A DNA stretch of 44,047 nucleotides, taken from the UHGV virus genome UHGV-0196292. One strand, 5' to 3'. A model generated the notes under the pieces. The model ran no database searches and was not told the origin of the DNA. It was given only the letters and a program-made list of their open reading frames with translations. Source of the DNA: a virus. This document shows, one piece after another, positions 7,705 to 44,047 of this stretch (position 1 is its first letter; each line of letters begins with the position of its first letter). Position numbers and translations under genes: made by a program.

Positions 7705-7733
7705 AATATAGTAGGGTCGATGGTAATAGTCAA
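7705..7733 (-). promoter_or_regulatory. sigma70-like promoter (TTGACT-N17-TATATT; TACTAT-class -10)
   Basis: Minus-strand hexamers at 7728-7733 and 7705-7710 with 17-nt spacer, just downstream of a terminator. Confidence 0.45.
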
Positions 7734-7756
7734 CTAGTCATTACAGAAAATAGATA

Positions 7757-10612: not shown

Positions 10613-10644
10613 CTTCTGTCTCTCCTCTCGTTTGTGTAAATGAA

Positions 10645-10673
10645 TAGTAGCCTATTCTATCTTAGTGTGCAAG
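10645..10673 (-). promoter_or_regulatory. sigma70-like promoter TTGCAC-N17-TACTAT with GAATAG-N4-CTATTC palindrome
   Basis: Minus-strand hexamers at 10668-10673 and 10645-10650; perfect inverted repeat 10642-10657. Confidence 0.5.
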
Positions 10674-10851: not shown

Positions 10852-10924
10852 TTGTTGCATATCCTGCAATAGTCGCTTCTATTGTTGCGTTTGGTGAAAT
10901 AGAACAAAAATGAGAAAAATGATA

Positions 10925-10948
10925 CGCTGCTGTGTAGCAGCGTAAGAC
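10925..10948 (-). terminator. hairpin terminator/attenuator on minus strand
   Basis: Perfect 8-bp stem ACGCTGCT-acac-AGCAGCGT followed by T-rich tract (atcatttttctcattttt) on minus strand. Confidence 0.5.
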
Positions 10949-11010
10949 ACAAAGACAAATAGTAACCTATTGACCTGTTACACCAGCGACGGCGGCTCGG
11001 GTAACGGCAT

Positions 11011-11834: not shown

Positions 11835-12028
11835 CCTCCCTCAGAGTCGTCGGCACGAGCATCATGATTCGATGCCGTTCGTAGCGCACGTAAAACTTTT
11901 AGCAGGTCCTTCCATACCCCGGAAGAAATAGTTGGGCCGTCGAATAAAATAACTTCGTATCTGTTTACCTGGAAATGCACTTTCTCCAGTCTATGATGTT
12001 TCAGTTCTTCAAATAATTCTTCCATCAC
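11825..12028 (-). CDS. hypothetical protein
   Basis: 67 aa ORF. Confidence 0.3.
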   Translation of the reverse strand: MMEELFEELKHHRLEKVHFQVNRYEVILFDGPTISSGVWKDLLKVLRALRTASNHDARADDSEGGCR

Positions 12029-12216
12029 TTCACCCCTTTGAATTTAAAATTGTTGCCGATGAGACACATATCCTGTGCGTATAAAACGGTGAGATACGAC
12101 CCCGTTAAAGATTCAGCAAAATAGATATTATTTTCTTTATGAAATGCGAATATGACCGCAAGCTCCCCAGTCCCCGTAATTCTCACCAACTGACCCTTCT
12201 TAAACATAACTCTCAC
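12025..12216 (-). CDS. hypothetical protein (first gene of minus-strand early operon)
   Basis: 63 aa ORF directly downstream of promoter 12242-12270. Confidence 0.35.
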   Translation of the reverse strand: MRVMFKKGQLVRITGTGELAVIFAFHKENNIYFAESLTGSYLTVLYAQDMCLIGNNFKFKGVK

Positions 12217-12241
12217 TCCTCTGTCTCGTTCCGATAAGTGA

Positions 12242-12270
12242 ATAGTATCCTATTATGCTGGGGCGTGCAA
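12242..12270 (-). promoter_or_regulatory. sigma70-like promoter TTGCAC-N17-TACTAT with GAATAG-N4-CTATT palindrome
   Basis: Minus-strand hexamers at 12265-12270 and 12242-12247. Confidence 0.5.
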
Positions 12271-12644
12271 GAGAATAGTTACGTTGCCGTTGTGATTCTT
12301 TCGTTTCTTAAAAGAGTACGCAACGCAGTGGGTGGGCGTTAGCCCACCCCAGCGGAGTGAAGTACTCTCCGCCTTGCTCACGGCAACTGTAGAAACTTTT
12401 AATTATCAGTGACTTAAGAGGTATGATGCCGATGAGAATAGAGCTTACCCAGGGCAACCGGAGATACAAGGAAGGAAAGTTACGGTAATTCTTATGTTCA
12501 GTAATCTGCCGCTTAACACTTCGCTTGCGCTTTGGCGCCGCTGCGTTTCAAGCGGGTATTACAAGGTGAACAGGAATCAAAGTAACTAAGATATAGAAGC
12601 ACCTTAAACGAAGATTTTCATAATGTCAATATGTGCGATTATGT

Positions 12645-12673
12645 TTGATTTCCCATTATTCGCAATGTATACT
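12645..12673 (+). promoter_or_regulatory. sigma70-like promoter TTGATT-N17-TATACT for plus-strand replication block
   Basis: Hexamers at 12645-12650 and 12668-12673. Confidence 0.45.
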
Positions 12674-12705
12674 TGGTTCCTATAACTGATAATGAGGGTT
12701 TGAGA

Positions 12706-12876
12706 ATGACACAGAATGAGGTAGCTGAGCGTATCGGGGTTACTCGTCGCACACTTAATAACTGGTTAAAGAGTGGGAAGTTCCCGGATTGTTGTATCCG
12801 TATTATGGGTCGCCGTCAGCCAGGTACGTTCGACCCGGAGAAAGTGGAAGCGTGGATTAAGGAGAACGTGAAATGA
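12706..12876 (+). CDS. AlpA/excisionase-like HTH transcriptional regulator
   Basis: ATG at 12706 with GAGGG RBS (track start 12673 is TTG); VAERIGVTRRTLNNWLKSGKFP HTH pattern. Confidence 0.5.
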   Translation: MTQNEVAERIGVTRRTLNNWLKSGKFPDCCIRIMGRRQPGTFDPEKVEAWIKENVK

Positions 12877-13106
12877 CCGAATTTCAGTCGCGCGTATTTA
12901 CGGCGGTCGTTTCGTTAACACGTAAAAAAGGGTCATGCAGTGTTATCGACTTGCGCCGTAGTTATTTTAAGTACTATAGTTCAGCCATTATTGAAGGGTC
13001 GTTGAAAGTGCTGGTTAAATCGGGTGTCGTGAAAAACGTTGGCGGGAAATATAACGCTGTTGCTGAAGTTCGCGGAATGACCGCTACTTTAGAAGACCTG
13101 GAATAA
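12873..13106 (+). CDS. hypothetical protein
   Basis: 77 aa ORF, overlapping start/stop. Confidence 0.4.
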   Translation: MTEFQSRVFTAVVSLTRKKGSCSVIDLRRSYFKYYSSAIIEGSLKVLVKSGVVKNVGGKYNAVAEVRGMTATLEDLE

Positions 13107-13165
13107 AAGAAAGCCCCGACGCGGTGAACGCCGAGGCCAAATTACTTGCTGAAGGAATATACAAC

Positions 13166-15433
13166 ATGTCCGATGTAATTTTATCCTACTCGTGGTCTCG
13201 TCGCAACGCGCGGGCGGAGAAAAAGGATATAAACGTCAAAACCACACACACGGCAACACTGGACGACCTGAAAGAGCTAATTAAGCCGCTTGATGCTATT
13301 CGTGATGGAATTAACCCGAAGACCGCGCCTGGCTACATCACCGCCGCGTGTGACTCGACGCACAGCACCGTAAAAGACCCGGAAACCGGCGACTTTAAGC
13401 AGGCGCGTAAAGGCTTCTTCTATCGTTGCGACGCGTCTGTAAGCAAATCGTCACTGGCGTATCTGGATTTCGACAGCGCAACGCCGGAAGAGTATCAGGA
13501 AGCGGTGCGCCGGGTTAAGCGCAGTCGTCGCGCGATGTGCCTCTACACCACGGCATCCCATACCGATGAGTCACCGCGCTTTCGCGTCGTCATGCCGCTG
13601 GGTCGCCCTGTCGAAGGGGGTGACATCATCCGCGTACGTCACGGGTTGCTGGAACACTTCTTCAAAGGCATGGGCGCTGACCGCAGCGGGTTCACTCTGT
13701 CGCAGCCGATGTATCTGCCTCCGGTCGGCGCTACCGTTATCTGGTCGCGCCGTAACGACCTGATTGACCCGGACGAGTTGCTTGAAGGCATCCCCGACGT
13801 TGACGTTAGCAGCGCATCCGACTACCAGATACCGGAAGAACTGCGCACCGCGTTTACTGATGCGTTTGAAGCACTGGCATTCGAGTACGGCGGCATCATG
13901 ACACCCCGCGGTCTGAAAATGCCAGCTACGCCGGAACACGCAGAAAACTACAGCGACCCGACGCCGCGTCCGGATGACTTCCTGCTGTGTTTCCCGCGTG
14001 AAGGGTACGAAGCGCCGAACGTAACCATGATTCATGACACCGACATTACGGCGACCGAAGGCATGCCACCGAAAGAGGTGTGGAAGTATGCGTGCGATGC
14101 GACAGGGCTGCCGTTCAGTGAAGTTGCAGAGGCCATCGGATGGGGTGCACGTGAATCTGTTTCATGCAGCCTGGACGACCTGGAAGACGACGAGGATCCA
14201 GAGGAGGACGAGTTACCGGAACCGGTAAAGGCGGATTTCGTCGTTGAGGGGTACATGCCGTCGGATTGCATCTGGGATATCGTCGGGGAATCTGGCACGT
14301 ACAAATCGTTCTATACGCTGGGGATGATGTACCTCAGCGCCGCCGGATACCGGTTTGCGGGAGCCGATACGCAGCGTTGCCACCATTTCTATATCGACGG
14401 CGAGGGTGGTGCAGCTACGCGCACACGTATCGATGCACTCGCGGCTAAATACGGCGAGGAAGGTAAAGATTATGTACATGTCATTGACATGGGTGAAGTC
14501 GGCAAGCTGAAAAACCTGATTAAGTTGATGCGTGAAACTGCTGGCGACGAGCCAATTGGCATGGTTGCGTTCGACACCCTTAACCAGACGCTGGCCCTGA
14601 CGATTGATAAGTTTGACGAGAACAGTTCATCAACGGCAATCGGCATGGGTAAAGTCATCGCCATCCTGAAAGAAGTGCGTGACGCGACTAAAGCTGCGGT
14701 AGGCGTTGTCCACCATACGCCGAAGGGTGGAAAGAAAGCCCGCGGCAGCGGGGCGCTGTATGCGGGCGTCGACGTGGAACTGACAATTGAACGCGCAACC
14801 GACCGCCAGATAAACGTATATCACTCTAAATTTAAGCACGGGCCGCAACAGAAGACGGTCGGCATGGTGCTTGAGTCTGTACAGTTCCGTGAAGCGCCGC
14901 CGCCGAAAGAGTATCGCGCCGTTGAGTTCCTCGGTAGCACGGAGGAATACGGCACAATAGTAAACCTCGACCTGCCGGAGCCGCACAAGGCGCTTGTGCT
15001 GATGCCGTGGGGCTTCGAGCCGTTCAAGACTGACGAGGAGAAAGAGCGGGAAGAAGGTCTGACAAAGGAAGGTAAAGAAAACGTACGTAAAACCGTAGAG
15101 AACGCCGTCAACAGTTCGGAGGCCACGATACTGGCAGCGTTTGAACTGGCAGAAGGAACCTACAGCGGCAACGAAGGTATCACGGTAGCCGCAGCGAATA
15201 AGCTCGCACAGTCCGACCCTAACGCAAAGGCGTTCAACTCTAAAGAAGCCATAGAACGCGGGAAGATTAAGAAAATGGTTGAGGCCGGGTATCTTGTTCC
15301 GGGTACTGACGAAAACAATCAGATAATCCCTGGCCGTTACAGGCTGAACACCCGGATAACGGATAACAAGATTCCGAAGACAATATACGAACCGAATGAA
15401 ATGTTAACAGTGACAGAGGAGGATTTGGAATGA
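13166..15433 (+). CDS. DNA primase-polymerase / RecA-like helicase fusion
   Basis: N-terminal prim-pol-like region; central Walker A (GESGTYKS) of RepA/DnaB-like ATPase; ATG at 13166 preferred over GTG at 13124. Confidence 0.7.
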   Translation: MSDVILSYSWSRRNARAEKKDINVKTTHTATLDDLKELIKPLDAIRDGINPKTAPGYITAACDSTHSTVKDPETGDFKQARKGFFYRCDASVSKSSLAYLDFDSATPEEYQEAVRRVKRSRRAMCLYTTASHTDESPRFRVVMPLGRPVEGGDIIRVRHGLLEHFFKGMGADRSGFTLSQPMYLPPVGATVIWSRRNDLIDPDELLEGIPDVDVSSASDYQIPEELRTAFTDAFEALAFEYGGIMTPRGLKMPATPEHAENYSDPTPRPDDFLLCFPREGYEAPNVTMIHDTDITATEGMPPKEVWKYACDATGLPFSEVAEAIGWGARESVSCSLDDLEDDEDPEEDELPEPVKADFVVEGYMPSDCIWDIVGESGTYKSFYTLGMMYLSAAGYRFAGADTQRCHHFYIDGEGGAATRTRIDALAAKYGEEGKDYVHVIDMGEVGKLKNLIKLMRETAGDEPIGMVAFDTLNQTLALTIDKFDENSSSTAIGMGKVIAILKEVRDATKAAVGVVHHTPKGGKKARGSGALYAGVDVELTIERATDRQINVYHSKFKHGPQQKTVGMVLESVQFREAPPPKEYRAVEFLGSTEEYGTIVNLDLPEPHKALVLMPWGFEPFKTDEEKEREEGLTKEGKENVRKTVENAVNSSEATILAAFELAEGTYSGNEGITVAAANKLAQSDPNAKAFNSKEAIERGKIKKMVEAGYLVPGTDENNQIIPGRYRLNTRITDNKIPKTIYEPNEMLTVTEEDLE

Positions 15434-15627
15434 GCGGTAAATTTAAAGAAGTAAGCGACGAACTGAAAGGTAATAAATACACCAACCACAGAGGTGAAAT
15501 AGTAGAAGTTCTTAACGTAGTTCCTTATGGGCGTGGCTACCATGTTGTGTTCAGCTACACGGAGGCTTACAGCGTGTACTGCGGGTTAGGTAAGTTTCGC
15601 AAAAGATACCCGATAAAGGTGCAATAA
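15430..15627 (+). CDS. hypothetical protein
   Basis: 65 aa ORF; start overlaps primase stop within GAGGAGG. Confidence 0.4.
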   Translation: MSGKFKEVSDELKGNKYTNHRGEIVEVLNVVPYGRGYHVVFSYTEAYSVYCGLGKFRKRYPIKVQ

Positions 15628-15632
15628 AAAGA

Positions 15633-15652
15633 AAGGGGCGTTAAGCCCCTTC
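15633..15652 (-). terminator. terminator hairpin for the XRE gene
   Basis: AAGGGGC-gttaa-GCCCCTT with T-run on the minus strand. Confidence 0.5.
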
Positions 15653-15856
15653 ACCGAACGCCAGCCACTTGGCGTCTACTTGCAGCACTTCCGCCAGTTT
15701 AAACAGCGTTGCCGGTCGGACGTCCTGAGTTACCCCGAGTGCCAGTTGGTTAATCGCGCCCTGAGAAACACCAGCCAGAACAGCCAGACGGCGCTGGGAG
15801 AGGCCTAGCTCTTTACGGCGTTGTTCTACACGGATGCCTAGTTCAGATGGTTGCAT
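15641..15856 (-). CDS. XRE-family HTH regulator (Cro/CI-type)
   Basis: HTH motif QRRLAVLAGVSQGAINQLALG; lone minus-strand gene inside plus-strand block with own promoter and terminator. Confidence 0.7.
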   Translation of the reverse strand: MQPSELGIRVEQRRKELGLSQRRLAVLAGVSQGAINQLALGVTQDVRPATLFKLAEVLQVDAKWLAFGEGA

Positions 15857-15887
15857 GTCAATTACTCCTTAGTCAGTTGATATGTGA

Positions 15888-15916
15888 ATAGTACCATATT
15901 AATTATTTTAGAAAAG
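15888..15916 (-). promoter_or_regulatory. promoter of XRE gene (TG-extended TACTAT -10, weak -35) overlapped by palindrome
   Basis: Minus-strand TGGTACTAT (15888-15896); GAATAG..ATATT palindrome 15887-15901. Confidence 0.4.
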
Positions 15917-15920
15917 CCCA

Positions 15921-15949
15921 TTGACAACATGAATAGTTCGCTATTATAG
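15921..15949 (+). promoter_or_regulatory. divergent sigma70-like promoter (TTGACA-N17-TTATAG) overlapped by GAATAG-N4-CTATT palindrome
   Basis: Consensus -35 at 15921-15926; palindrome 15932-15946. Confidence 0.5.
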
Positions 15950-15981
15950 TTAGCCTATACCAAACGAGAGGAGAGAAACAA

Positions 15982-16131
15982 ATGACCAATAACCGCAAAG
16001 CAAAGATTCTGTTAGGCCTTGATATTGCATTTGGAACTAAAGAAACCGCACGCTATCGCGTAAGCAACAATCGTGTTGGCTTCTTCGACAAAGCGACGGG
16101 CCGGTTAGTTAAAACCGTTAAATACAAATAA
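15982..16131 (+). CDS. small basic protein (49 aa), first gene after the switch region
   Basis: Strong RBS GAGAGGAGAG; hand translation MTNNRKAKILLGLDIAFGTKE...; below ORF-track cutoff. Confidence 0.4.
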   Translation: MTNNRKAKILLGLDIAFGTKETARYRVSNNRVGFFDKATGRLVKTVKYK

Positions 16132-16146
16132 ACAGGAGAACAAATA

Positions 16147-16608
16147 ATGTTAGACCAATTCTTAAAATTACTGGAACGTTTCGTAGTTGCCCATGAACTG
16201 ATTGCTGCGAACAGTGTGAAACAGGTTGTCGTTGCTGAAACTGCAACAATCGGGCCTACTGTTGCAACAAAAGAAATCCCGGTTGAAGGAGAAGACGTCG
16301 TCGACACTAAACCTGCAGAAGAAGAGAAGCCGAAACGCAAGCCGCGTAAAGGTAAAGTAGAGGAACCTGCGCCAGAGCCGGAAGAAGAGAAAGAAGAGGT
16401 CGATTACCAGTCCATTCGCGACCAGATTCAGGCTATCGACGACGCGATTAACGAGGGTCCTAGTGATGCCGCGTGCGATGATTCCGATGAACTGCTGGAA
16501 GAGTTCACCGGTAAGAAGATGAAGATTGCCGCGATTAAAGACGAAGACCTTGCGGAGTACCTGGAACGCCTGACGGCAATCAAGAACAAGTATTTCGAAG
16601 AAGAATAA
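16147..16608 (+). CDS. highly acidic protein
   Basis: 153 aa with long Glu/Asp-rich tracts (EEPAPEPEEEKEE; DDSDELLEEF). Confidence 0.5.
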   Translation: MLDQFLKLLERFVVAHELIAANSVKQVVVAETATIGPTVATKEIPVEGEDVVDTKPAEEEKPKRKPRKGKVEEPAPEPEEEKEEVDYQSIRDQIQAIDDAINEGPSDAACDDSDELLEEFTGKKMKIAAIKDEDLAEYLERLTAIKNKYFEEE

Positions 16609-16651
16609 TTATCCCGCGGCCTTCGGGCCGCTTTAACTGAGGGTCGGAATT

Positions 16652-16855
16652 ATGGCTATTTTAGCTAAGAAAAGTGGGCTTATGATTTCAGGGCGAGTCA
16701 TAGAAGAAACAGATAACTTTGTATGCTTCCACGCGGTAGATAATAAACGCCCTACGTATGTACAAAAGTCGGATAAAACACAAAAAGTTTTCGACGGTGA
16801 TTTTTCTATGGATGACGTTTTCTCGTGGATTAATTCTGTGAGGGTAAAGAAATGA
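16652..16855 (+). CDS. hypothetical protein
   Basis: 67 aa ORF in operon. Confidence 0.4.
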   Translation: MAILAKKSGLMISGRVIEETDNFVCFHAVDNKRPTYVQKSDKTQKVFDGDFSMDDVFSWINSVRVKK

Positions 16856-17124
16856 TTTACCAACTCTACCGCGCCGTAGACAGGCGGGATAACACAGAGG
16901 CGTTGTGGCTGTTGCGTGCGCCGTCCGGTGCGCACCAGATGGAAGAGATGGCGTACTTAGGCAAAGTGCCGCACCCTAAAGATATAGGCCGTCACGTGTC
17001 GCAGATTAAGCGCACGACTTTCGCCAAGCCTGACTTTTATGTCTTCGAGTCGATGTACGGGTGGGCTATGCATTGTGACCATAAGACACGACATTTAATT
17101 GACCAGTGGGGGAACAGGGTATGA
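16852..17124 (+). CDS. hypothetical protein
   Basis: 90 aa ORF, overlapping start/stop. Confidence 0.4.
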   Translation: MIYQLYRAVDRRDNTEALWLLRAPSGAHQMEEMAYLGKVPHPKDIGRHVSQIKRTTFAKPDFYVFESMYGWAMHCDHKTRHLIDQWGNRV

Positions 17125-17378
17125 ATTGGGTTAGCGTAAACGAAGCATTACCGGAGTCAAAAGATGATTCTGTTTTAGTTTGCTCAGTAGACGGTAGTAA
17201 ATGCGACGATAATGGGTTCCCGGAAGGTGGAATTGATTTTGTGCACATACAGGACTATTTCGACGACATTACTGCGGGGCTGGATGAAAACGGAAATCAG
17301 TTATATACGAAACAGTATATCGAGATGGGTATAACACACTGGATGTATTTACCAGAACTACCGGAGGAGGCTAAATAA
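17106..17378 (+). CDS. DUF551-like phage protein
   Basis: WVSVNEALPE signature near N-terminus. Confidence 0.5.
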   Translation: MGEQGMNWVSVNEALPESKDDSVLVCSVDGSKCDDNGFPEGGIDFVHIQDYFDDITAGLDENGNQLYTKQYIEMGITHWMYLPELPEEAK

Positions 17379-18652
17379 TGATTCTAAAAGAACGCGGCGG
17401 CAATAACGATGTGCACGCCCTGCTGTCGCCGTCAGGTGCTAAGAAGTGGCTGACGTGCAGTGCATCACTGGCCTGTGAAAGAGATATCCCTAACACATCG
17501 GGTAAAGCCGCCGTATTAGGCACAGCCATGCACACCATAGCTGAGATGCATCTAAACCAGTACATCAAAGGCACTGCGTTGCCGTTAGAACGTGAAGTCG
17601 GTGCTTACGTGCTGGATGAGGGTAAAGGTCAGATTAAGGCGCTAATCAGTCCGATGAAAGGTGCGGTACTAATTACGGCGGACATGATTGAGCAGGTGCG
17701 CAAGTACACCGACTACTGCAAAGCGATTATCGATGTAGCGACTTACGCCAAGCTGGAAATGCGTGTCAATCTTACTGAGGTATTGCATCCGGGTTATGGA
17801 GGCGTTGAGACGTTCGGAACCGCCGACCTTGTTGCCGTTCTTGAAAAGGCGAACACAGACGAACATATCCTCAATGTTACCGACCTGAAAACCGGGCGGC
17901 ATCGTGTCGAAGCGAAAGAAAACAAGCAGCTTATGCTTTACGCTCTCGGTGTTTATCGCCGGCTCAAGAGACGTTATAACATCACCATGGTTCGTCTGGT
18001 CATCTTCCAGCCGTACGCGGGTGGCGCGTCGGAGTGGGACATCTCAGTTGAAGGTCTGGAGCTGTTCGCTAAGTTTGCGCAGAAACGCGCACTGTTAGCC
18101 CTCGATGCTTATTCCCGCGGCAAGAAGAACCTGAAGGCATCGGATTTCAAGCCGTCAGTAGATGGTTGTCAGTGGTGCCGGTTCTCTGAACAGTGCGCCG
18201 CGCGTACAAAAACAGTTAACGCGGTACTGGCAGAAGAACTGGAGGACGACTTTGCACTGGAACTGACGCCAGAGCAACTAGTAGCTGAATACGAGAAGCT
18301 GCCGCTGTTGCGCCAGCACATCGACAAGGTTGAAAAAGCGATGGCTGCCGCGTTGCATTCCGGTAAGAAAGTGCCGGGGTACAAGCTGGTTGAAGGTCGT
18401 CCTGGTAATCGTGCGTGGAAGGATGAAGACGCAGTAAATAAATTCAGAGAAAACCATGTAAACGGCTACTTATTAGATAAACTAGTGCCAGTTACCCCAA
18501 CAGAAGCAGAAAAAACCATAGGTAAAATTGACCCAGAACTGTGGGAAGAATTGGCTAAACTCGTGACACGTAAGCCAGGCGCACCATGTGTCGCAACGGC
18601 AGACGACAAACGCCCTGAGTGGAATCAGGTAACAGAGGAGGATTTAGAATGA
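17378..18652 (+). CDS. Cas4-like PD-(D/E)XK exonuclease (DUF2800-type)
   Basis: N-terminal Cys plus C-terminal C-x2-C-x5-C (CQWCRFSEQC) Fe-S pattern; DLK catalytic-type motif; sits with SSB-like and PolA genes. Confidence 0.7.
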   Translation: MILKERGGNNDVHALLSPSGAKKWLTCSASLACERDIPNTSGKAAVLGTAMHTIAEMHLNQYIKGTALPLEREVGAYVLDEGKGQIKALISPMKGAVLITADMIEQVRKYTDYCKAIIDVATYAKLEMRVNLTEVLHPGYGGVETFGTADLVAVLEKANTDEHILNVTDLKTGRHRVEAKENKQLMLYALGVYRRLKRRYNITMVRLVIFQPYAGGASEWDISVEGLELFAKFAQKRALLALDAYSRGKKNLKASDFKPSVDGCQWCRFSEQCAARTKTVNAVLAEELEDDFALELTPEQLVAEYEKLPLLRQHIDKVEKAMAAALHSGKKVPGYKLVEGRPGNRAWKDEDAVNKFRENHVNGYLLDKLVPVTPTEAEKTIGKIDPELWEELAKLVTRKPGAPCVATADDKRPEWNQVTEEDLE

Positions 18653-18900
18653 TTCGTAAAATGTTCAGGGTGCTTGGTGGGTTTGTGGCGTGTATTGTTT
18701 TCTGGGTTCTTATGCTGCCCCTAACGCTACCGACATTTATCTTAATGTGCCTTACGGTATGTGTAGCGCAAACTCGCGACATCGAAGCCATCCTGCGTGA
18801 TAAATCGTGGAAGACACAGGCGCTTCGATTCATAAACAACATGAAATGGCCCAACAAGTATATTGAGATAGTTGAGAAAATAACTGGCTGGAAGGGTTGA
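18649..18900 (+). CDS. small membrane protein
   Basis: Start at MIRKMF (overlaps nuclease stop); two hydrophobic helices. Confidence 0.4.
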   Translation: MIRKMFRVLGGFVACIVFWVLMLPLTLPTFILMCLTVCVAQTRDIEAILRDKSWKTQALRFINNMKWPNKYIEIVEKITGWKG

Positions 18901-18925
18901 CACCTGAATAGTTAGCTACTATATT
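18897..18925 (+). promoter_or_regulatory. internal sigma70-like promoter TTGACA-N17-TATATT with GAATAG palindrome-like element
   Basis: Consensus -35 at 18897-18902; GAATAGttagCTACTAT 18906-18922. Confidence 0.45.
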
Positions 18926-18984
18926 TCTAATCACTGGCCGGGCAGCCTCCCGGAGTAAGCGAAACTTAAAAGCGAGAAATCAAG

Positions 18985-19611
18985 ATGGGTATTAAACTGA
19001 ATCTGCGTAAAGTAAACACTGCATGGGTTAACGTATTCGAACGCGAAAAAGACCGTGAAAACGATGATGGCTCAATCACTAAAGGCCAGTACAGCGCGAC
19101 TATCATCCTGCCGTCTGACCACGCGCAAATCGACGCGCTCTACGACACAGTTTATGCTGTAGTTGAAGAAGCATTGGGTGCCGCTGCTGCCGAGAAGTGG
19201 ATGAAATCCAACTACGGAGAAGGTAAGCACATGGATAAATGTGCGATTAAGGACATTGCCGAGCGTGACAATCCGTTTGAAGACTTCCCGGAAGGCTTCT
19301 ACTTCAAAGCTAAGGCACAGAAACAGCCACTGATTGTAACCTCTAAAAAAGGTGAGACTCAGGTAGAACAGGACTTCAACGTAGACGGCGAACAGATTGA
19401 AGGTGAACAGGTTTACAGCGGCTGCGTTGCTAACGTAAGCGTCGAAATCTGGTTCAGCCAGAAATACAAAGTCCTCGGTGTTAACCTGCTGGCGATTAAA
19501 TATGTTGGCGAAGGTAAAGCGTTCGGTGGTTCTAAAGTCGCCGCAAGTGTAGACGACCTGGAAGACGACGATGAAGATGAAGCACCGCGACGCGAACGTC
19601 GCCGTCGCTAA
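18985..19611 (+). CDS. ssDNA-binding protein (DUF2815-like)
   Basis: Position between Cas4-like nuclease and PolA; acidic DDLEDDDEDE tract followed by basic RRERRRR tail. Confidence 0.55.
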   Translation: MGIKLNLRKVNTAWVNVFEREKDRENDDGSITKGQYSATIILPSDHAQIDALYDTVYAVVEEALGAAAAEKWMKSNYGEGKHMDKCAIKDIAERDNPFEDFPEGFYFKAKAQKQPLIVTSKKGETQVEQDFNVDGEQIEGEQVYSGCVANVSVEIWFSQKYKVLGVNLLAIKYVGEGKAFGGSKVAASVDDLEDDDEDEAPRRERRRR

Positions 19612-22198: not shown

Positions 22199-22506
22199 CT
22201 AAAGAGGGCCGCGTACAGAAATACGCAAAAGAGCGATTCGAGGCCATTGGTGGCCTCATTCGTAAACTTTCCTACGAGGGGCGCTCCGGCGCTCCCGACC
22301 TGCTGGTAATTCTCCCCGGGGGCATCGTCTGGTTCGTCGAGGTGAAGAAAGACGAAAACACGAAGCCAGACCCGCACCAGCTACGTGAGCACGAGCGGAT
22401 GCGCAAACGCGGTGCAAATGTTTTTGTCGTTGGGTCGTTTAAACAGGTTGACGACCTAATAGCGAACTATTATAGTTATCCGTACACCAACAATATAAGG
22501 AATTGA
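22195..22506 (+). CDS. VRR-NUC domain nuclease
   Basis: Core GAPDLLVILPGGIVWFVEVKKDEN...LREHE (PD-(D/E)XK-type) in ~100 aa. Confidence 0.7.
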   Translation: MTKEGRVQKYAKERFEAIGGLIRKLSYEGRSGAPDLLVILPGGIVWFVEVKKDENTKPDPHQLREHERMRKRGANVFVVGSFKQVDDLIANYYSYPYTNNIRN

Positions 22507-34362: not shown

Positions 34363-34391
34363 TTGCACACCCCAATATAATAGGGTACTAT
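34363..34391 (+). promoter_or_regulatory. sigma70-like promoter TTGCAC-N17-TACTAT with AATAG-N4-CTATT palindrome
   Basis: Hexamers at 34363-34368 and 34386-34391; 18-mer identical to 20-37. Confidence 0.55.
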
Positions 34392-34416
34392 TCACCTGTA
34401 ACTTACTGAGGAAATA

Positions 34417-34746
34417 ATGATGCGTAAATTAGTATTAGCTCTGGGGTTTATGTCTTTTGCTGCTTTTGGGTCCCCGTGTGAACAGGTATTTAGTGAATCG
34501 GTTCTTATGACTTCTGGTGTGCTTGAGAAAGCCGACCCTACTATTGTAAAGGCATTTAAGGACTCTACCGTTCGCGAGTGTGAGGCCGCCGTAGAGGTTG
34601 GTAAATCTGGCCTACCTCCGCAAGCCGTAACATACTCGGTAATACGTTCGGTAGAGAAAAACGGAGACGCGTTTTACAGCCTACTGACCGCCACTCGTCT
34701 GCAAATGGTAATGACTGGGTGGGCGATAGGCGCGGAAAGTAAATAG
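34417..34746 (+). CDS. small secreted protein (cleavable signal peptide)
   Basis: N-terminus MMRKLVLALGFMSFAAFGSP is signal-peptide-like; RBS GAGGAA. Confidence 0.5.
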   Translation: MMRKLVLALGFMSFAAFGSPCEQVFSESVLMTSGVLEKADPTIVKAFKDSTVRECEAAVEVGKSGLPPQAVTYSVIRSVEKNGDAFYSLLTATRLQMVMTGWAIGAESK

Positions 34747-34811
34747 TCGCCTTTATTTAAAGGAATGCACTGTGGTTAAATAGGACAAATCCTAAACACG
34801 AGGAAGTAAGC

Positions 34812-35942
34812 ATGGCCCGGAAGAAAATAACCGACGAACAGTTACAGGAAGAATTGAACGCCGGAATGAAGAATATCGATATAGCCCGTAAATACGGCAT
34901 CTCAGACCGCGTTATTCGTATCCGTAAAGCGAAGCTGGCTAAGAAAGGCGTGGGCCACGGGCGCGACGTTAGCCACCTTGTCCCGGACGGCTACAAGATT
35001 AAAGGGACGTCGTCTCTGGTAGACGAGTTCGGCAACACTAAGTTGCAATGGGTTAAGACAGACACCGACGCTGAACGTCAGGTCGAGTTGATGAAAGCCG
35101 TGATTGAAGGCATGAAGTCAGAGATTACGCCAGTTGCGCCGGCTAAAGCGACTCGAGCCAAACGCGACGACAAGCTACTCAATCTTTACACGGTATCTGA
35201 TTTCCATCTCGGTATGCTTGCCTGGGCCGACGAGAGCGGCGACGACTGGGATATAAAGATTGCGGAAGACCTGTTCTCTCGTTGGTTCGACGCGGCGTTT
35301 CAGAAAGCACCGGATGCAGGAACAGGAGTTATTAACCTGCTGGGTGATTTCGCGCACTTCGATAGCCTGGATGCCGTTACCCCTGAGTCGCGCCATGTGT
35401 TAGACGCAGACACTCGCTACCAGAAACTTGTCCGCTACATGATTCGTATGGTCCGCCGTGTTGTTGATATGGCGCTGGTTAAACATAAAACCGTCCGCTT
35501 GCTTATCGTGCAAGGGAACCACGACCCTGTAGGGTCTGTATGGCTGGCGGAAATGTTCACGACTTTATACTCAAACGACAGCCGAGTGATTGTTGACACG
35601 TCGCCGGATGTTTACAAGATGGTGCAGCACGGCAAAACGACGCTGTTCTTCCATCACGGGCATAAAGCACGCTTCGACGCTATCGAACCGGTTATGATTG
35701 CCAAGTTCCGCAAAGCGTTCGGGGAGAGTGTCTATAGCTACGCCCACGTAGGCCACCTGCACCACCAGAAGATTGTAGAAAGCCGTAACATGATTGTTGA
35801 GCAACACCGCACCTTAGCGGCTAAAGACGCATACGCCTCCCGCGGCGGATGGATGTCAGGCCGCAGTGCAAATGTGATTACTTATAGCGCCGAATATGGC
35901 GAGGTCGCACGTTTAACCATTTCTCCGGAGATGCTGGGATGA
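34812..35942 (+). CDS. HTH-fused calcineurin-like metallophosphoesterase
   Basis: N-terminal HTH (DIARKYGISDRVIRIRKAKL); metallophosphatase motifs SDFHLG, GDFAHFD, GNHD, FHHGH, GHLHH. Confidence 0.7.
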   Translation: MARKKITDEQLQEELNAGMKNIDIARKYGISDRVIRIRKAKLAKKGVGHGRDVSHLVPDGYKIKGTSSLVDEFGNTKLQWVKTDTDAERQVELMKAVIEGMKSEITPVAPAKATRAKRDDKLLNLYTVSDFHLGMLAWADESGDDWDIKIAEDLFSRWFDAAFQKAPDAGTGVINLLGDFAHFDSLDAVTPESRHVLDADTRYQKLVRYMIRMVRRVVDMALVKHKTVRLLIVQGNHDPVGSVWLAEMFTTLYSNDSRVIVDTSPDVYKMVQHGKTTLFFHHGHKARFDAIEPVMIAKFRKAFGESVYSYAHVGHLHHQKIVESRNMIVEQHRTLAAKDAYASRGGWMSGRSANVITYSAEYGEVARLTISPEMLG

Positions 35943-36424
35943 AAGATATTGTAATTTTCGATTTAGATGGGACATTGGCGGATGGTACACATCGTTTACA
36001 CCTGCTGCCGAAAGATAACTACAACGAAACATGGGCGTGGAAGCCATTTAACATGGCGTGCAAAGATGATGAGCCAATTAGAGATAATATCGAACTATGT
36101 AACGCCCTTAATCGGCGATACGCCGTTATTATTTTAACCGGTCGCAGTGATGACGCAGAAAAAGAAACCAGAATGTGGTTGCAGCGCCACCGCGTCGAAT
36201 TTTATCAGCTAATCATGCGCAGCAAACACGACAACAGAAAAGACATCGTAATTAAAGAAGAGGTGTTGCGCGCTATCGGGCTGGAAAGAATCTTGTGTGC
36301 GTTCGATGATTCTCCGGCGGTAATTAAGCACTTCCGTGCCCTCGGCCTAACAACACACGCAGTCACCGAATATGACTGCAACGGGACCTCTACACACGTA
36401 AAACCACACGGGAGCGATAAATAA
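35939..36424 (+). CDS. HAD-family phosphatase (polynucleotide kinase 3'-phosphatase-like)
   Basis: HAD motif I FDLDGTL, then TGRSDD and FDDSP motifs; length and pattern resemble T4 PNK phosphatase domain. Confidence 0.6.
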   Translation: MKDIVIFDLDGTLADGTHRLHLLPKDNYNETWAWKPFNMACKDDEPIRDNIELCNALNRRYAVIILTGRSDDAEKETRMWLQRHRVEFYQLIMRSKHDNRKDIVIKEEVLRAIGLERILCAFDDSPAVIKHFRALGLTTHAVTEYDCNGTSTHVKPHGSDK

Positions 36425-36978
36425 TGGCTAAGGTAATTATTCTTAATGGCCCGGCGGGTTGTGGGAAAGACACACTCGCTATGGCGCTGGTAGAAATGGG
36501 CTTTGCGAAGGGAACCGCCAGTTTCAAGAATCCAATGTTCAATATTGCTTTGGCAGCGTTGGGCCCGGATGCTTACCGCGAATTTCTCGACGGCTACGAC
36601 GACCGGGCGCGGAAAGAAAGGCCAGAGGGTTTCCTTAATGGGCTGTCTCGCCGCCAGTTCATGATTGCCATTTCTGAGCAATTCATTAAACCAGTATTCG
36701 GCGATGATTATTTCGGTAAGTATCTTGCAGGAAACTTGCCCGACGGCGACGAAGTTTTTGTAGTGTCCGACGGTGGGTTCGCCAGCGAAGTAGCCCCTAT
36801 CGTCGCCGCAGGTCATGATGTAAGAATCGTTCGCTTGCACCGAGACGGCTATACGTTTGACGGGGATAGCCGCGGTTACCTGTACGATGTTGGTGGTGAT
36901 GAAGATTATGATGTATACATCATACCCGGTGACGTTAAATCTAACGTTATAGACATTGCTCTAAAATTAGGCTTGTAA
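36424..36978 (+). CDS. P-loop nucleotide kinase (dNMP kinase / polynucleotide kinase-like)
   Basis: Walker A GPAGCGKDT (xGKDT as in T4 dNMP kinase); ATGG overlap with preceding gene. Confidence 0.6.
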   Translation: MAKVIILNGPAGCGKDTLAMALVEMGFAKGTASFKNPMFNIALAALGPDAYREFLDGYDDRARKERPEGFLNGLSRRQFMIAISEQFIKPVFGDDYFGKYLAGNLPDGDEVFVVSDGGFASEVAPIVAAGHDVRIVRLHRDGYTFDGDSRGYLYDVGGDEDYDVYIIPGDVKSNVIDIALKLGL

Positions 36979-43501: not shown

Positions 43502-43733
43502 GGGTAATCACCTCTGATTTCGTCTTACCTTCGTTGTCAGCGGCTGCGGCCTTTGATTCGTCCTGCTGCTGCCGTTGTGCTTTCTTCGCTAACTCAGTCT
43601 GTGCTTTCTGTTGTTGCTGAGAAACGAGATTCGCCCGACCTTCGTTCCAGCCGCTGCGGTATTGAAAGTAGCCGTGTGCGTATAACAGGATGATGAAACA
43701 TGCCCCCGCTACGACAGTTGCTTTAAGATTCAT
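43347..43733 (-). CDS. i-spanin (Rz-like)
   Basis: N-terminal transmembrane helix, Gln/Ala/Lys-rich coiled coil, overlapping lipoprotein ORF. Confidence 0.6.
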   Translation of the reverse strand: MNLKATVVAGACFIILLYAHGYFQYRSGWNEGRANLVSQQQQKAQTELAKKAQRQQQDESKAAAADNEGKTKSEVITREVVKYIKTPGRSVCTFDDARVLLKSRAVANANSIPGYDDDAAALQTGAAK

Positions 43734-43744
43734 GTTTCTCCTTT

Positions 43745-43780
43745 CTAGATAAGTAAAGCCCCGCCGTAAAGCGGGGCGCT
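43745..43780 (-). terminator. hairpin terminator upstream of spanin genes
   Basis: AGCCCCGC-cgtaaa-GCGGGGC hairpin with T-rich flank on minus strand. Confidence 0.45.
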
Positions 43781-44047
43781 AGTCCTTATCATTTAAACAT
43801 AGAAACGGCGTAATCTCAGTAAACCAGTTACTTTTTACACAAGCAATAGAGTATGGCCCTTCCGAACGCGTCAGCGTAACTACACTCAGGACTTACGTCC
43901 CGCTCCGTTACCTGCCCGCGCCGCGGTCGCTTGTTCATACTTCACAAGCTCAGGTGGAGCTTAGCACATTTTCAGTGAAAAGTCAACTATTCGAATAGTT
44001 TATTCCAACATTTACAATTCGGTGGAATAACTGGAATAGGTAAATAA

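Follow-up and report, generated by a model that had tools for sequence, protein, structure and literature searches.

The XRE-type gene at 15641-15856 on the minus strand probably encodes an autoregulated repressor of the size of Cro, which would bind a short inverted repeat and turn down promoters dispersed over the whole phage genome. To this reading, which was derived from the sequence, a probability of about 60% is given. The window, i.e., the whole stretch of 44,047 nt that was analyzed, is the complete genome of a Kagunavirus, a virulent phage of E. coli. In the preliminary description, two palindromes over the divergent promoters of the XRE locus were taken as a local pair; instead, both are members of a set of dyads that extends over the genome.

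Dyads over the promoters of the genome

The dyad has the consensus (G/T)AATAG-N4-CTATT(A/C) and a length of 14-16 bp. With at most one mismatch, 13 sites are present in the window compared to ∼1.1 expected, and the 15-mer pattern, allowing up to one mismatch, gave 19 strand-matches versus 0.54 expected. An unbiased palindrome scan of the window ranked AATAG-N4-CTATT at the top with 7 perfect copies, the next best palindrome having 3, and the same palindrome was also at the top in a scanned Jerseyvirus genome. All but one of the 13 sites are intergenic (12/13), in a genome with an intergenic share of ∼8% according to our ORF map. The intergenic promoter matches with the highest scores (15921, 18897, 22448, 7733 minus and 34402 minus) all carry a dyad. 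As 11 of the 12 transcription units have a dyad over the -35 element, the spacer or the -10 element, the XRE locus appears as one node of a global regulon.

The dyads are positioned in three registers relative to the promoter hexamers. At three or four strong TTGACA-type promoters the center lies at ∼-18.5. The promoter TTGACA-N17-TATATT (18897-18925), which precedes the SSB and DNA polymerase genes, has a predicted operator with one mismatch in its spacer (18906-18921), and TTGACG-N17-TATAGT (22448-22476), which precedes the methyltransferase and helicase genes, has a perfect one, likewise in the spacer (22457-22472). At five weak TTGCAC/TACTAT promoters, which include that of XRE itself and were predicted from position and conservation only, with 7/12 matches, the center lies at ∼-12.5. 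The predicted operator at 21-36, upstream of gene 55-282, has this register and contains the -10 of the plus-strand promoter TTGCAG-N17-TACTAT. Perfect predicted operators on minus-strand TTGCAC-N17-TACTAT promoters are located at 10642-10657, preceding the operon from 10612 to 7852 with small genes, holins and endolysin, and at 12240-12255, upstream of the operon from 12216 to 10679. The perfect predicted operator at 34378-34393 is common to two overlapping divergent promoters, TTGCAC-N17-TACTAT on the plus strand, which leads into genes 34417-36978, and GTTACA-N17-TATATT on the minus strand (34402-34374), which leads into the tail operon.

At both structural-gene promoters the dyad is centered at ∼-33.5, and each of these predicted operators has one mismatch. 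The terminase/portal/head operon is served by the minus-strand promoter TTGACT-N17-TATATT (7733-7705), the -35 TTGACT of which lies within the site at 7724-7739; Schulenburg and Jerseyvirus have orthologous sites, likewise with one mismatch. The site at 43977-43992 contains the -35 TTGACT of a minus-strand promoter with the -10 TAAGCT (43958-43963), which serves the scaffold/capsid/tail-tube operon; in Schulenburg its counterpart lies 91 bp from the counterpart of the site at 21. A further perfect dyad at 10957-10972 is found within a small-gene cluster and adjoins a terminator hairpin (10923-10944). The sole transcription unit without a dyad is the operon of HTH_17, p77, primase-helicase and p65, the promoter of which is TTGATT-N17-TATACT on the plus strand (12645-12673); the Jerseyvirus counterpart of this promoter is conserved and likewise without a dyad.

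The three registers relative to -35 and -10 fit a site for an independent protein, not an element recognized by the polymerase. This contradicts the label under which the motif was published: in the Kagunavirus fBC-Eco01, PHIRE identified seven copies with the consensus tgAATAGTa-ccTATTat-T, which were labeled phage-RNA-polymerase promoters (PMC9825357). Apart from this label, the evidence makes it scarcely credible that the motif is a phage-specific promoter for a phage-encoded RNA polymerase or sigma factor. Neither in the window nor in the annotated relative was an ORF for such a protein found, the largest ORFs encoding tail, tape-measure, primase-helicase, DNA polymerase and tailspike proteins, and the motif is not an asymmetric and directional element but a dyad, symmetric and with a free N4 center, lying over sigma-70-like hexamers and not at a fixed distance from the start. 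In our best reading the motif, already known from Kagunavirus, is a repressor operator that was misread as a polymerase promoter, and the published label should be corrected. Beyond the PHIRE consensus, none of the papers found in a literature search and read deals with the XRE regulator or the dyad motif.

As the dyads lie directly on core promoter elements, a protein bound to them would exclude host RNA polymerase. An alternative is that XRE acts as a dual regulator, repressing the strong TTGACA promoters and switching on the weak TTGCAC/TACTAT and the structural promoters as an early-to-late timer. The poor hexamers of the weak promoters, which might need help, the dependence of the register on the promoter class, and the restriction-modification controller (C) proteins C.AhdI and C.BclI, which are among the closest folds to the XRE model, would fit such a timer. 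However, with centers at ∼-12.5 and ∼-33.5 the dyads lie over the -10 and -35 hexamers, and such centers are repressor positions, activators normally being located at or upstream of -41. Nothing indicates a polymerase contact surface either, and this dual action is considered unlikely. MerR-type activation from the spacer was rejected, the spacers being 17-18 bp long and the dyad being shifted towards the -10.

The XRE gene and its divergent control region

The XRE ORF (15641-15856, minus, 71 aa; Pfam HTH_3, 6.6e-13) is exactly as previously described and, also in line with that description, it is alone on its strand in the replication block, being the sole minus-strand gene between 12673 and 25059. 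The terminator claimed for it was identified as a hairpin at 15632-15652 with an 8-bp GC-rich stem, followed on the minus strand by the T-run CTTTTTATT. This intrinsic terminator, which overlaps the final codons of XRE, is opposed by the end of the primase operon. XRE is monocistronic, and a terminator of its own together with a predicted operator over its -10 gives the gene an autoregulatory layout.

The divergent control region (15860-15980) contains two predicted operators. O1 (15886-15901, GAATAGTACCATATTA) has one mismatch and is centered at ∼-12.5 of the XRE promoter, and O2 (15931-15946, GAATAGTTCGCTATTA) is a perfect dyad centered at ∼-18.5 of the rightward promoter. The two palindromes reported earlier are real, although they start one base before the positions given for them. 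Their distance is 45 bp from start to start, in agreement with the ∼45 bp claimed, and a dyad indeed overlaps each -10: O1 contains that of XRE, and O2, which fills the spacer of the rightward promoter, covers the first two bases of its -10. A third, middle operator was sought in the 29 bp between O1 and O2, but no dyad was found there.

The predicted core of the XRE promoter (15888-15896, minus) is an extended -10, TGG-TACTAT. Its hexamer TACTAT (15893 to 15888) is the sole plausible -10 of the gene and lies, preceded by TGG, inside the left dyad, and the mismatch of O1 (TAATAT for TAATAG on the XRE strand) gives the T of the extended -10 TG. No recognizable match to a -35 was found for this promoter, the sequence at 15911-15916 being CTTTTC. 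Read from the sequence, the start would be near 15881, and the RBS AAGGAG is located at 15865-15870. The facing promoter, which had been described as a consensus TTGACA promoter, is near-consensus with an 11/12 match: TTGACA (15921-15926), an 18-nt spacer and TATAGT (15945-15950) on the plus strand. It is one of the two top-scoring sites within 12000-19000 and serves the replication/recombination operon, including a 153-aa gene, DUF551 and a PD-(D/E)XK exonuclease. The predicted starts of these two divergent, back-to-back promoters are ∼76 bp apart. An Rfam search of the whole window matched no family.

The first ORF downstream of the rightward promoter encodes 49 aa (15982-16131, plus) and has a weak match to PHROG 1380, for which no function is assigned; a Pfam scan of this ORF gave no match and no HTH. 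It is present as proposed, but it was found in only 5 of 37 Kagunavirus loci, compared to 37/37 for both XRE and the 153-aa gene, and judged from the sequence it is accessory rather than a conserved XRE partner.

Among 35 distinct Kagunavirus sequences no variation occurs in the half-sites of O1 and O2, and the differences lie in their N4 centers and in the linker of 3-4 nt that leads to the -35; over 112 distinct dyad sites the N4 positions carry 0.07-0.43 bits. The rightward promoter is conserved in Kagunavirus and Jerseyvirus, and the same dyad recurs in Jerseyvirus with its operator core unchanged between the genera. The spacing of O1 and O2 is 43-45 bp in other Kagunaviruses and 55 bp in Jerseyvirus. 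Helical phasing of the two operators (45 versus 55 bp) was rejected as a constraint because the spacing within Kagunavirus is 43-45 bp.

In the repressor model, the weak extended -10 promoter would make XRE, a dimer of which would bind the 14-16 bp dyads on the core promoter elements and keep host RNA polymerase away. XRE would thereby lower the strong rightward replication promoter via the perfect operator O2, its own promoter through the imperfect operator O1, and some nine other promoters likewise. Negative autoregulation via the weaker site on its own promoter is plausible. As the operators of XRE itself and of both structural operons carry one mismatch, their promoters would be the last to be shut off, an affinity hierarchy that is based on single mismatches. 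The role would be akin to the turn-down by Cro in lambdoid lytic growth, here over 12 small transcription units, and is compatible with the earlier suggestion that XRE times early transcription. That one repressor should act on all units, the structural operons among them, is functionally odd in a virulent phage and weighs against the model.

The protein that binds the dyad

By sequence matches and by its predicted structure, XRE is a 434 Cro/cI-type HTH protein with a single domain. Among PDB sequences, XRE matches 434 Cro best (E 3.6e-7, over the full length), followed by the N-terminal domain (NTD) of 434 cI and P22 c2. The AlphaFold model has five helices (pLDDT 79), with 2cro and 1pra as top Foldseek matches. 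The HTH domain takes up all of the 71 aa, without a C-terminal oligomerization or RecA-cleavable domain, and the recognition helix is predicted as S31-Q-G-A-I-N-Q37. Homologous-protein searches with XRE returned close Kagunavirus relatives only (78-97% identity), hence no independent genomic contexts, and the HTH residues G29-G41 are unchanged in homologs down to 79% identity. Distant IMG/VR loci (L038-L061, 28-49% identity), which had been retrieved via the common word QRRKELGL, were rejected as unrelated CI-like repressors with other palindromes.

The 434 system is the closest in structure. The five-helix fold is common to 434 Cro, the 434 cI NTD and XRE, and 434 Cro also has 71 aa. The operators of 434 (ACAAG-N4-CTTGT) and P22 (TTAAG-N4-CTTAA) are 5-N4-5 dyads with an inner AG..CT, a geometry shared by the dyad described here, and the 14-bp operators of 434 likewise lie over back-to-back divergent promoters. 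When XRE was aligned with the textbook contacts of 434, the equivalents of Gln28 and Gln33 (Q32 and Q37) and the half-site adenines 1 and 4 were found to be kept; the half-site is ACAAG in 434 and AATAG here. In contrast to the three adjacent operators OR1-OR3 of 434, two are found here, 45 bp apart, plus about ten scattered over the genome, and a partner cI or cro gene, a C-terminal domain and a lysogeny module are lacking here.

XRE, as a dimer, is most likely the binder of the dyads, as judged from sequence comparison. A motif-only scan of viral contigs identified high-GC prophages of the Sphingomonad type (L069, L082, L105, L110-L119) with three AATAG-N4-CTATT operators between divergent cI-like and cro-like genes. 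In a reverse search starting from the N-terminal domains of the prophage CI proteins, 10 loci with a GC of 0.60-0.63 were obtained; in all 10, helix 3 is TQGAI(S/W)Q and at least one dyad (0-1 mismatch) lies within ∼100 nt upstream of cI. Between SQGAINQ of XRE and TQGAISQ of the prophage CI, the residues Q32, G33, A34, I35 and Q37 are invariant, at an identity of 33-41% over the HTH domain. This co-occurrence of recognition helix and operator in unrelated prophages supports XRE as the dyad binder. Unlike the phage studied here, these prophages carry canonical temperate switches: their CI has 219 aa including a C-terminal domain, a cro-like gene is oriented divergently, and, besides the three adjacent operators, there is a second operator pair elsewhere. 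Among six loci from a genome-contig scan, one is the same Sphingomonad prophage, a Parasphingorhabdus locus has a one-mismatch dyad 25 nt upstream, and four delta-proteobacterial/Binatia regulators with SQGAISR (Arg for Gln37) and without dyads are neutral. A phage group rich in ACTAATAGATAACTATTTA (L068, L083, L089 and L098) was set aside, as it has a longer fixed motif and no XRE homolog nearby.

The dyads may instead be bound by another factor, XRE then acting locally or on other sites. The leading candidate is the product of the HTH_17 gene (12706-12876, plus; 56 aa; Pfam HTH_17, 3.3e-7; PHROG 66 'excisionase and transcriptional regulator'), an excisionase-family HTH gene that contradicts the earlier statement that no excisionase partner is visible; otherwise a host regulator would be involved, although we are aware of no regulator of E. 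coli that has such a motif. The comparison between genera argues for HTH_17: its Kagunavirus and Jerseyvirus proteins have 89% identity, whereas the Jerseyvirus XRE ortholog is 51% identical and has the recognition helix SQSLITH, with three of the four predicted base-contact positions changed while the dyad is identical, which also counts against the repressor model. The same holds for the outgroup phage STP-1, which has retained a homolog of XRE (38% identity) but lacks both the dyads and an HTH_17 gene. The orthologous promoters of STP-1 hold degenerate relics of the dyad only, and no enriched alternative palindrome or shared motif matching its diverged XRE was found in that genome. Covariation of XRE alleles and operators offered no variation to compare, the HTH being invariant within Kagunavirus and the operator core constant between the genera.

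The promoter of the HTH_17 operon alone is free of dyads, as expected of a first-expressed regulator, and in published Kagunavirus RNA-seq the HTH_17 ortholog vB_Eco_K1B4_008 (183 bp) is 'early', as one of four early-peaking genes, and the XRE ortholog (004, 216 bp, next to the helicase) is 'middle', in a time course that was coarse and unsynchronized; this order, too, is against the repressor model. On the other side, HTH_17 is a 56-aa HTH protein of the excisionase/terminase-small-subunit type with no dimerization segment and no solved relative, and excisionase-type HTH proteins usually bind direct repeats, not 5-N4-5 dyads. HTH_17 moreover varies from 71 to 100% within Kagunavirus, where the dyad is constant, and the dyad geometry and the helix/operator co-occurrence in all ten prophage loci favor an XRE-type protein. 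Binding by a factor other than XRE is therefore considered rather unlikely.

Relation to lysogeny and to known regulatory circuits

The XRE locus had been described as a CI/Cro-type switch with autoregulation. The XRE fold and the dyads over divergent promoters were confirmed, but there is one regulator with two operators and an empty middle. Such a switch needs two antagonistic regulators sharing three adjacent operators and is thus not supported; a six-frame ORF scan of the window, in which XRE was the sole XRE-type ORF, found no second CI/Cro-type regulator. In our best reading, the XRE locus does not form a bistable switch between lysis and lysogeny. The lack of an integrase was confirmed: neither the annotation of Schulenburg nor Pfam/PHROG scans of the other large ORFs showed an integrase or recombinase. 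In the Schulenburg record and in a general scan of the ORFs, partition genes were not annotated either.

A bistable CI/Cro-like switch or a global silencer, under which the phage would persist without integration as a silent episome (carrier state, pseudolysogeny or hibernation), only the replication operon remaining active, is quite unlikely. It would account for the location of the XRE gene where cI would lie, with transcription leading away from the early promoter, for the stronger operator being on the early promoter and the weaker on that of XRE, and for the fact that the only dyad-free promoter is that of the primase-helicase operon. One repressor with a dozen dispersed operators also corresponds to the logic of P1 C1 and mycobacteriophage L5 gp71. 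Furthermore, the 44,086-bp circular 'plasmid' CP088689.1 of an E. coli blood isolate is a Kagunavirus genome. However, the genome is circularly permuted, so a circular assembly is expected anyway, and this record is the only one among 72,556 plasmid records, none of which is a Jerseyvirus. A second regulator, a middle operator, a cooperativity or cleavage domain and an integrase are all missing. Jerseyvirus relatives form clear plaques and gave no mitomycin-inducible lysogens (PMC8425127), and Kagunaviruses are described as strictly lytic. When the region was sought in 5,426 complete E. coli genomes, no copy was found. The non-integrative carrier state that had been suggested consequently has little support. 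It is similarly very doubtful that Kagunavirus and Jerseyvirus, which are treated as strictly virulent, carry a complete single-repressor silencing circuit, with XRE operators on all promoters but that of the replication operon, that maintains a quiet replicating episome in slow-growing hosts, as a form of hibernation or carrier state without an integrase; if true, this would explain both the conserved imm gene and the occasional phage genome recorded as a clinical-isolate 'plasmid'.

The repressor model was further compared with known circuits. In the 'stoperator' systems of P1 C1 and L5 gp71, one repressor acts on ten or more dispersed sites, many of them on promoters, and the 13 sites found here, 12 intergenic and distributed over 11/12 units, conform to this arrangement. 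P1 and L5 are, however, temperate and their operators asymmetric, whereas the sites here are symmetric and the phage is virulent by published tests, with clear plaques, no prophage copies and one anomalous 'plasmid' record. Like lambda Cro, XRE would be a small dimeric lytic-phase repressor on core promoters that lowers early transcription and the cI-side promoter. Lambda Cro is encoded by the first gene of the early operon, whereas the XRE gene is in the cI position; unlike in lambda Cro, the stronger site of XRE is on the early promoter, and XRE would act at 11 units where lambda Cro acts at two (PL and PR). C.AhdI and C.BclI are also small XRE proteins of close fold that autoregulate via paired dyads upstream of their own genes and serve as timing devices, but C-boxes are adjacent pairs mediating activation and then repression of one operon, with another motif and no genome-wide regulon.

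Kagunavirus and Jerseyvirus account for ∼470 of the phage genomes searched and include strains used in therapy, biocontrol and synthetic biology (CM001, BASEL Bas70-76). If the repressor model is true, a 71-aa protein and a 16-bp dyad govern 11 of 12 units, and the programme would be testable with one protein and a few reporters. XRE supplied in trans would then confer a cross-genus 'immunity' against these phages, resident prophage repressors with a matching recognition helix could block them, and the dyad with its promoters would form a compact set of repressible promoters. 'Repressor' labels in databases need not imply temperate behavior.

The XRE locus and its conservation in relatives

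The 3-kb region around the XRE gene was 91-93% identical to Kagunavirus (Guernseyvirinae) phages of Escherichia, among them K1G, K1H, Ivi and Schulenburg; Jerseyvirus phages of Salmonella matched more remotely. Palindromes of the form AATAG-N4-CTATT, here called dyads, were located at 43977 and 21, 91 bp apart across the window junction and at the same distance in Schulenburg (6184 and 6275). Since relatives have the two ends of the window joined, the window represents a whole, arbitrarily opened 44 kb genome.

The XRE ORF (15641-15856, minus strand, 71 aa) was as given in the preliminary description and matched HTH_3 (6.6e-13); database labels for the gene are 'transcriptional repressor', 'Cro' and 'DicA'. 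Its own terminator, which ends the XRE transcript, was recovered at 15632-15652 as a minus-strand hairpin and T-run, and no second XRE-type ORF was found in a profile search of all stop-to-stop segments in six frames. Both reported palindromes exist, but start one base earlier than reported: the left dyad O1, GAATAGTACCATATTA, spans 15886-15901 and the right dyad O2, GAATAGTTCGCTATTA, spans 15931-15946, 45 bp start to start. The consensus rightward promoter was also recovered as a sequence match (TTGACA-N18-TATAGT, 15921-15950, score 11/12) and its spacer is occupied by O2. On the XRE strand, O1 reads TAATATGGTACTATTC; the sole workable -10 of the XRE promoter is TACTAT (15893 to 15888), preceded by TGG as an extended -10, with CTTTTC at the -35 position. 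The single mismatch of O1 (TAATAT for TAATAG) provides the T of the extended -10 TG, which would explain why this imperfect half-site is invariant in relatives. The 49-aa first gene is present in only 5 of 37 Kagunavirus loci versus 37/37 for XRE and the next gene. The statement that no excisionase partner is visible needs correction, as an excisionase-family HTH gene (HTH_17, 56 aa) lies at 12706-12876. Apart from these corrections, the description of the locus stands.

A second rightward promoter match (TTGATA-N18-AATTAT, 15877-15906, 9/12) has O1 in its spacer, placed as the dyads are at the strong promoters, so that O1 might control a rightward promoter besides that of XRE; Jerseyvirus has not kept this match.

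The half-sites of O1 and O2 were invariant among 35 different Kagunavirus sequences of the intergenic region at XRE, and variation fell in the N4 centre and the 3-4 nt linker between dyad and -35. The N4 positions carried only 0.07-0.43 bits over 112 different sites collected from 38 Kagunavirus sequences; half-site information in this table is high by construction.

Dyads at predicted promoters throughout the genome

Allowing at most one mismatch, GAATAGNNNNCTATT gave 19 strand-matches in the window, compared with 0.54 expected. In an unbiased count of every 5-mer inverted repeat with gaps of 2-8, AATAG-N4-CTATT ranked first with seven perfect copies, and the runners-up (three copies) were terminator stems. 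Dyad sites with up to one mismatch numbered 13, versus ∼1.1 in shuffled sequences, and 12 of the 13 are intergenic, while intergenic DNA makes up ∼8% of the genome in our ORF map. The feature is real and well above chance.

Read in context, the sites showed three arrangements relative to promoters. At strong promoters (15921, 18897 and 22448, plus strand; 34402, minus strand), TTGAC(A/G) is followed by N3-4 and a dyad centered at about -18.5, the final two bases of which open the -10 (TATAGT or TATATT). At weak promoters (sites 21, 10642, 12240 and 34378, and that of XRE), TTGCA(C/G) is followed by N9 and TAATAGGnTACTATTC, with the -10 TACTAT within a dyad centered at about -12.5; the dyad at 34378 is common to two overlapping divergent promoters. 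In front of the two structural operons (7724-7739 and 43977-43992), the form is (G/T)A(A/C)TAG-TTGA-CT(A/T)TT, centered at about -33.5, with the -35 TTGACT within the dyad. In our transcription map, the predicted promoters of 11 of 12 units carry a dyad; the only dyad-free promoter (TTGATT-N17-TATACT, 12645-12673) is that of the genes for HTH_17, a 77-aa protein, the primase-helicase and a 65-aa protein. Promoter scans overall were not above chance, and all promoters given here are therefore predicted ones; those intergenic matches that score best fall together with dyads.

The complete genome of Jerseyvirus Kenya-K69 contained 10 dyad sites (1.2 expected) in the same promoter contexts. The structural-operon dyads each have exactly one mismatch, and this is so for the window, Schulenburg and Jerseyvirus alike; since making the dyad perfect would leave TTGACT intact, a weaker site seems to have been selected for. 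No dyads were found in the 41 kb of the outgroup Guernseyvirinae phage STP-1, which has only degenerate relics at orthologous promoters.

In the fBC-Eco01 genome paper, PHIRE found seven copies of tgAATAGTa-ccTATTat-T, which were named 'phage-RNA-polymerase promoters' (PMC9825357). This label was rejected and cannot be right, since a polymerase gene is lacking and the dyad is symmetric and occurs in three registers. Within the mainly open-access literature covered, the motif was neither linked to the XRE protein, nor recognized as an operator set over nearly all transcription units, nor noted as conserved across Kagunavirus and Jerseyvirus.

Two extra dyads (1839-1854, kept in Schulenburg, and 10957-10972) lie inside operons, off any obvious promoter, and adjoin terminator-like hairpins (1858-1873 and 10923-10944, respectively). 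The leaders after the dyads at 21, 10642, 12240 and 15931 share the block AAACGAGAG(G)AG directly before the start codon, also in Jerseyvirus, and this may be a common strong ribosome-binding leader. The 450-nt stretch (12256-12705) separating the 12216 operon from the HTH_17 gene has no convincing ORF; it contains sequence blocks kept between Kagunavirus and Jerseyvirus, and a conserved minus-strand promoter match (TTGACA 12629-12624, N17, TAAGGT 12606-12601) is directed into it. The minus-strand RNA predicted there (339 nt) is more stably folded than shuffled sequences (z = -3.9) and had no Rfam match. The stretch could be a non-coding RNA, or the replication origin adjoining the primase operon.

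Candidate proteins for binding the dyad

XRE is the obvious candidate for binding the dyad, with a probability of roughly 0.75, but not the sole one. Among proteins of solved structure, the best sequence matches to XRE were 434 Cro (E 3.6e-7, over the full length), the 434 cI DNA-binding domain and P22 c2; its AlphaFold model (pLDDT 79, five helices) has 2cro and 1pra as first fold matches. The operators of 434 and P22 are 5-N4-5 dyads with inner AG..CT, and the window dyad is alike in both. In the alignment with these solved relatives, the equivalents of 434 repressor Gln28 and Gln33 are kept (Q32 and Q37), whereas Gln29 is replaced by Gly; the contacted adenines at half-site positions 1 and 4 are kept (ACAA versus AATA) and positions 2-3 differ. 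This correspondence is no more than consistent with XRE binding.

Stronger evidence was obtained from independent loci. Viral contigs with two AATAG-N4-CTATT within 3-33 nt were mostly AT-rich chance matches, but also included four contigs of 64-67% GC. These have three operators between divergent 219-aa cI-like and 80-aa cro-like genes, and a second operator pair elsewhere. The recognition helix of their CIs is TQGAISQ, versus SQGAINQ in XRE, and their closest relative from an isolated phage is 434 cI. A reverse search with the N-terminal domains of these CIs gave 10 loci of 60-63% GC from about five lineages, one in Rhizorhabdus histidinilytica; all 10 combine a TQGAI(S/W)Q helix with at least one dyad (0-1 mismatch) within ∼100 nt upstream of cI. 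Helix and operator thus travel together in bona fide switches unrelated to the window phage.

Alternatively, HTH_17 or another factor binds the dyad, which is considered unlikely. Between Kagunavirus and Jerseyvirus, HTH_17 is 89% identical and XRE only 51% (Jerseyvirus helix 3 SQSLITH), with the dyad core unchanged; within Kagunavirus, however, HTH_17 varies from 71 to 100% identity while the dyad is also unchanged. STP-1 lacks both HTH_17 and dyads and has kept XRE, and HTH_17 is the first gene of the sole dyad-free operon. The one published Kagunavirus time course is coarse, as the phage share of reads increases only from 0.7 to 8.9% in 50 min. In it, the HTH gene with an early peak is 008 (183 bp), the HTH_17 ortholog by position and size, and the XRE ortholog 004 (216 bp, beside helicase) is classed as middle. 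Against this, HTH_17 is an excisionase-type domain of 56 aa without a dimerization segment or a solved relative.

In STP-1 (locus L063, 10126-10492), the XRE homolog is first in the primase-helicase operon, on which XRE converges in Kagunavirus and Jerseyvirus; the module is thus inverted between them. Four IMG/VR contigs of an unrelated phage group (L068, L083, L089 and L098; GC 0.47-0.49) contain 4-7 intergenic copies per 6-11 kb of ACTAATAGATAACTATTTA, a longer fixed motif containing the dyad half-sites; no XRE homolog was found near these copies.

A partial likeness to the lambda switch

The likeness of the locus to the CI/Cro-type switch proposed in the preliminary description is real but partial. 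The divergent promoters (predicted starts ∼76 bp apart), the operators at OR1-like and OR3-like positions and the transcription of XRE from the cI side resemble lambda/434. In contrast to these, the features that define a bistable switch were looked for and are missing: the locus has neither a second regulator nor a middle operator, XRE has no C-terminal domain, and no maintenance function was found in the annotated relative or the scanned ORFs. The lambda-switch reading, and the carrier-state reading that had been suggested with it, are mostly not supported.

The absence of an integrase was confirmed by the Schulenburg annotation. Likewise, no recombinase was among the Pfam and PHROG matches of the window's other large or unassigned ORFs, which were to a methyltransferase, kinases, a nuclease, a lysozyme and tail proteins. 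A non-integrative carrier state is very improbable: Jerseyviruses form clear plaques and mitomycin-inducible lysogens were not obtained (PMC8425127), Kagunaviruses are described as strictly lytic, and the region was present in 0 of 5,426 complete E. coli genomes and Jerseyvirus in 0 of 72,556 plasmid records. The one oddity is the circular 44,086-bp 'plasmid' pC16EC0033-2 of a Korean E. coli blood isolate (PLSDB CP088689.1, L120), a complete Kagunavirus genome with 88-91% identity to the window in both its replication and its structural module. The record could stem from contamination or from carriage that persisted through colony purification; since the genome is permuted, its assembly would be circular anyway.

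Judged from sequence, the system most likely employs a familiar type of part, a repressor of the 434 type with operator dyads, in an unusual way, as a one-protein, genome-wide regulon of a virulent phage. As each dyad covers part of a core promoter (-10, spacer or -35), a bound protein should keep RNA polymerase out. Dyads at the strong replication promoters are mostly perfect, and those at the promoter of XRE itself and at both structural operons have one mismatch. From this arrangement we infer the sign of regulation and the affinity order, and a Cro-like turn-down circuit would be the simplest reading. XRE would be produced from its weak, -35-less promoter and, as it accumulates, would throttle the strong and accessory operons first, with its level held by negative autoregulation; the structural operons would be least affected and the primase-helicase operon would stand outside the circuit.

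The leader of the structural operon (window 43734-43965) extends ∼200 nt from the predicted promoter (-10 43958-43963) to the first ATG at 43733. Within it, the coding strand has a GC-rich hairpin resembling a terminator (43758-43777), a hint that late genes may be controlled by antitermination or attenuation. The sole match to the XRE region in the 5,426 E. coli genomes was a CRISPR spacer of strain 2017.09.02CC (NZ_AP025214.2, 4038605-4038639), 97% identical over 35 nt to 15659-15693, inside the XRE gene.
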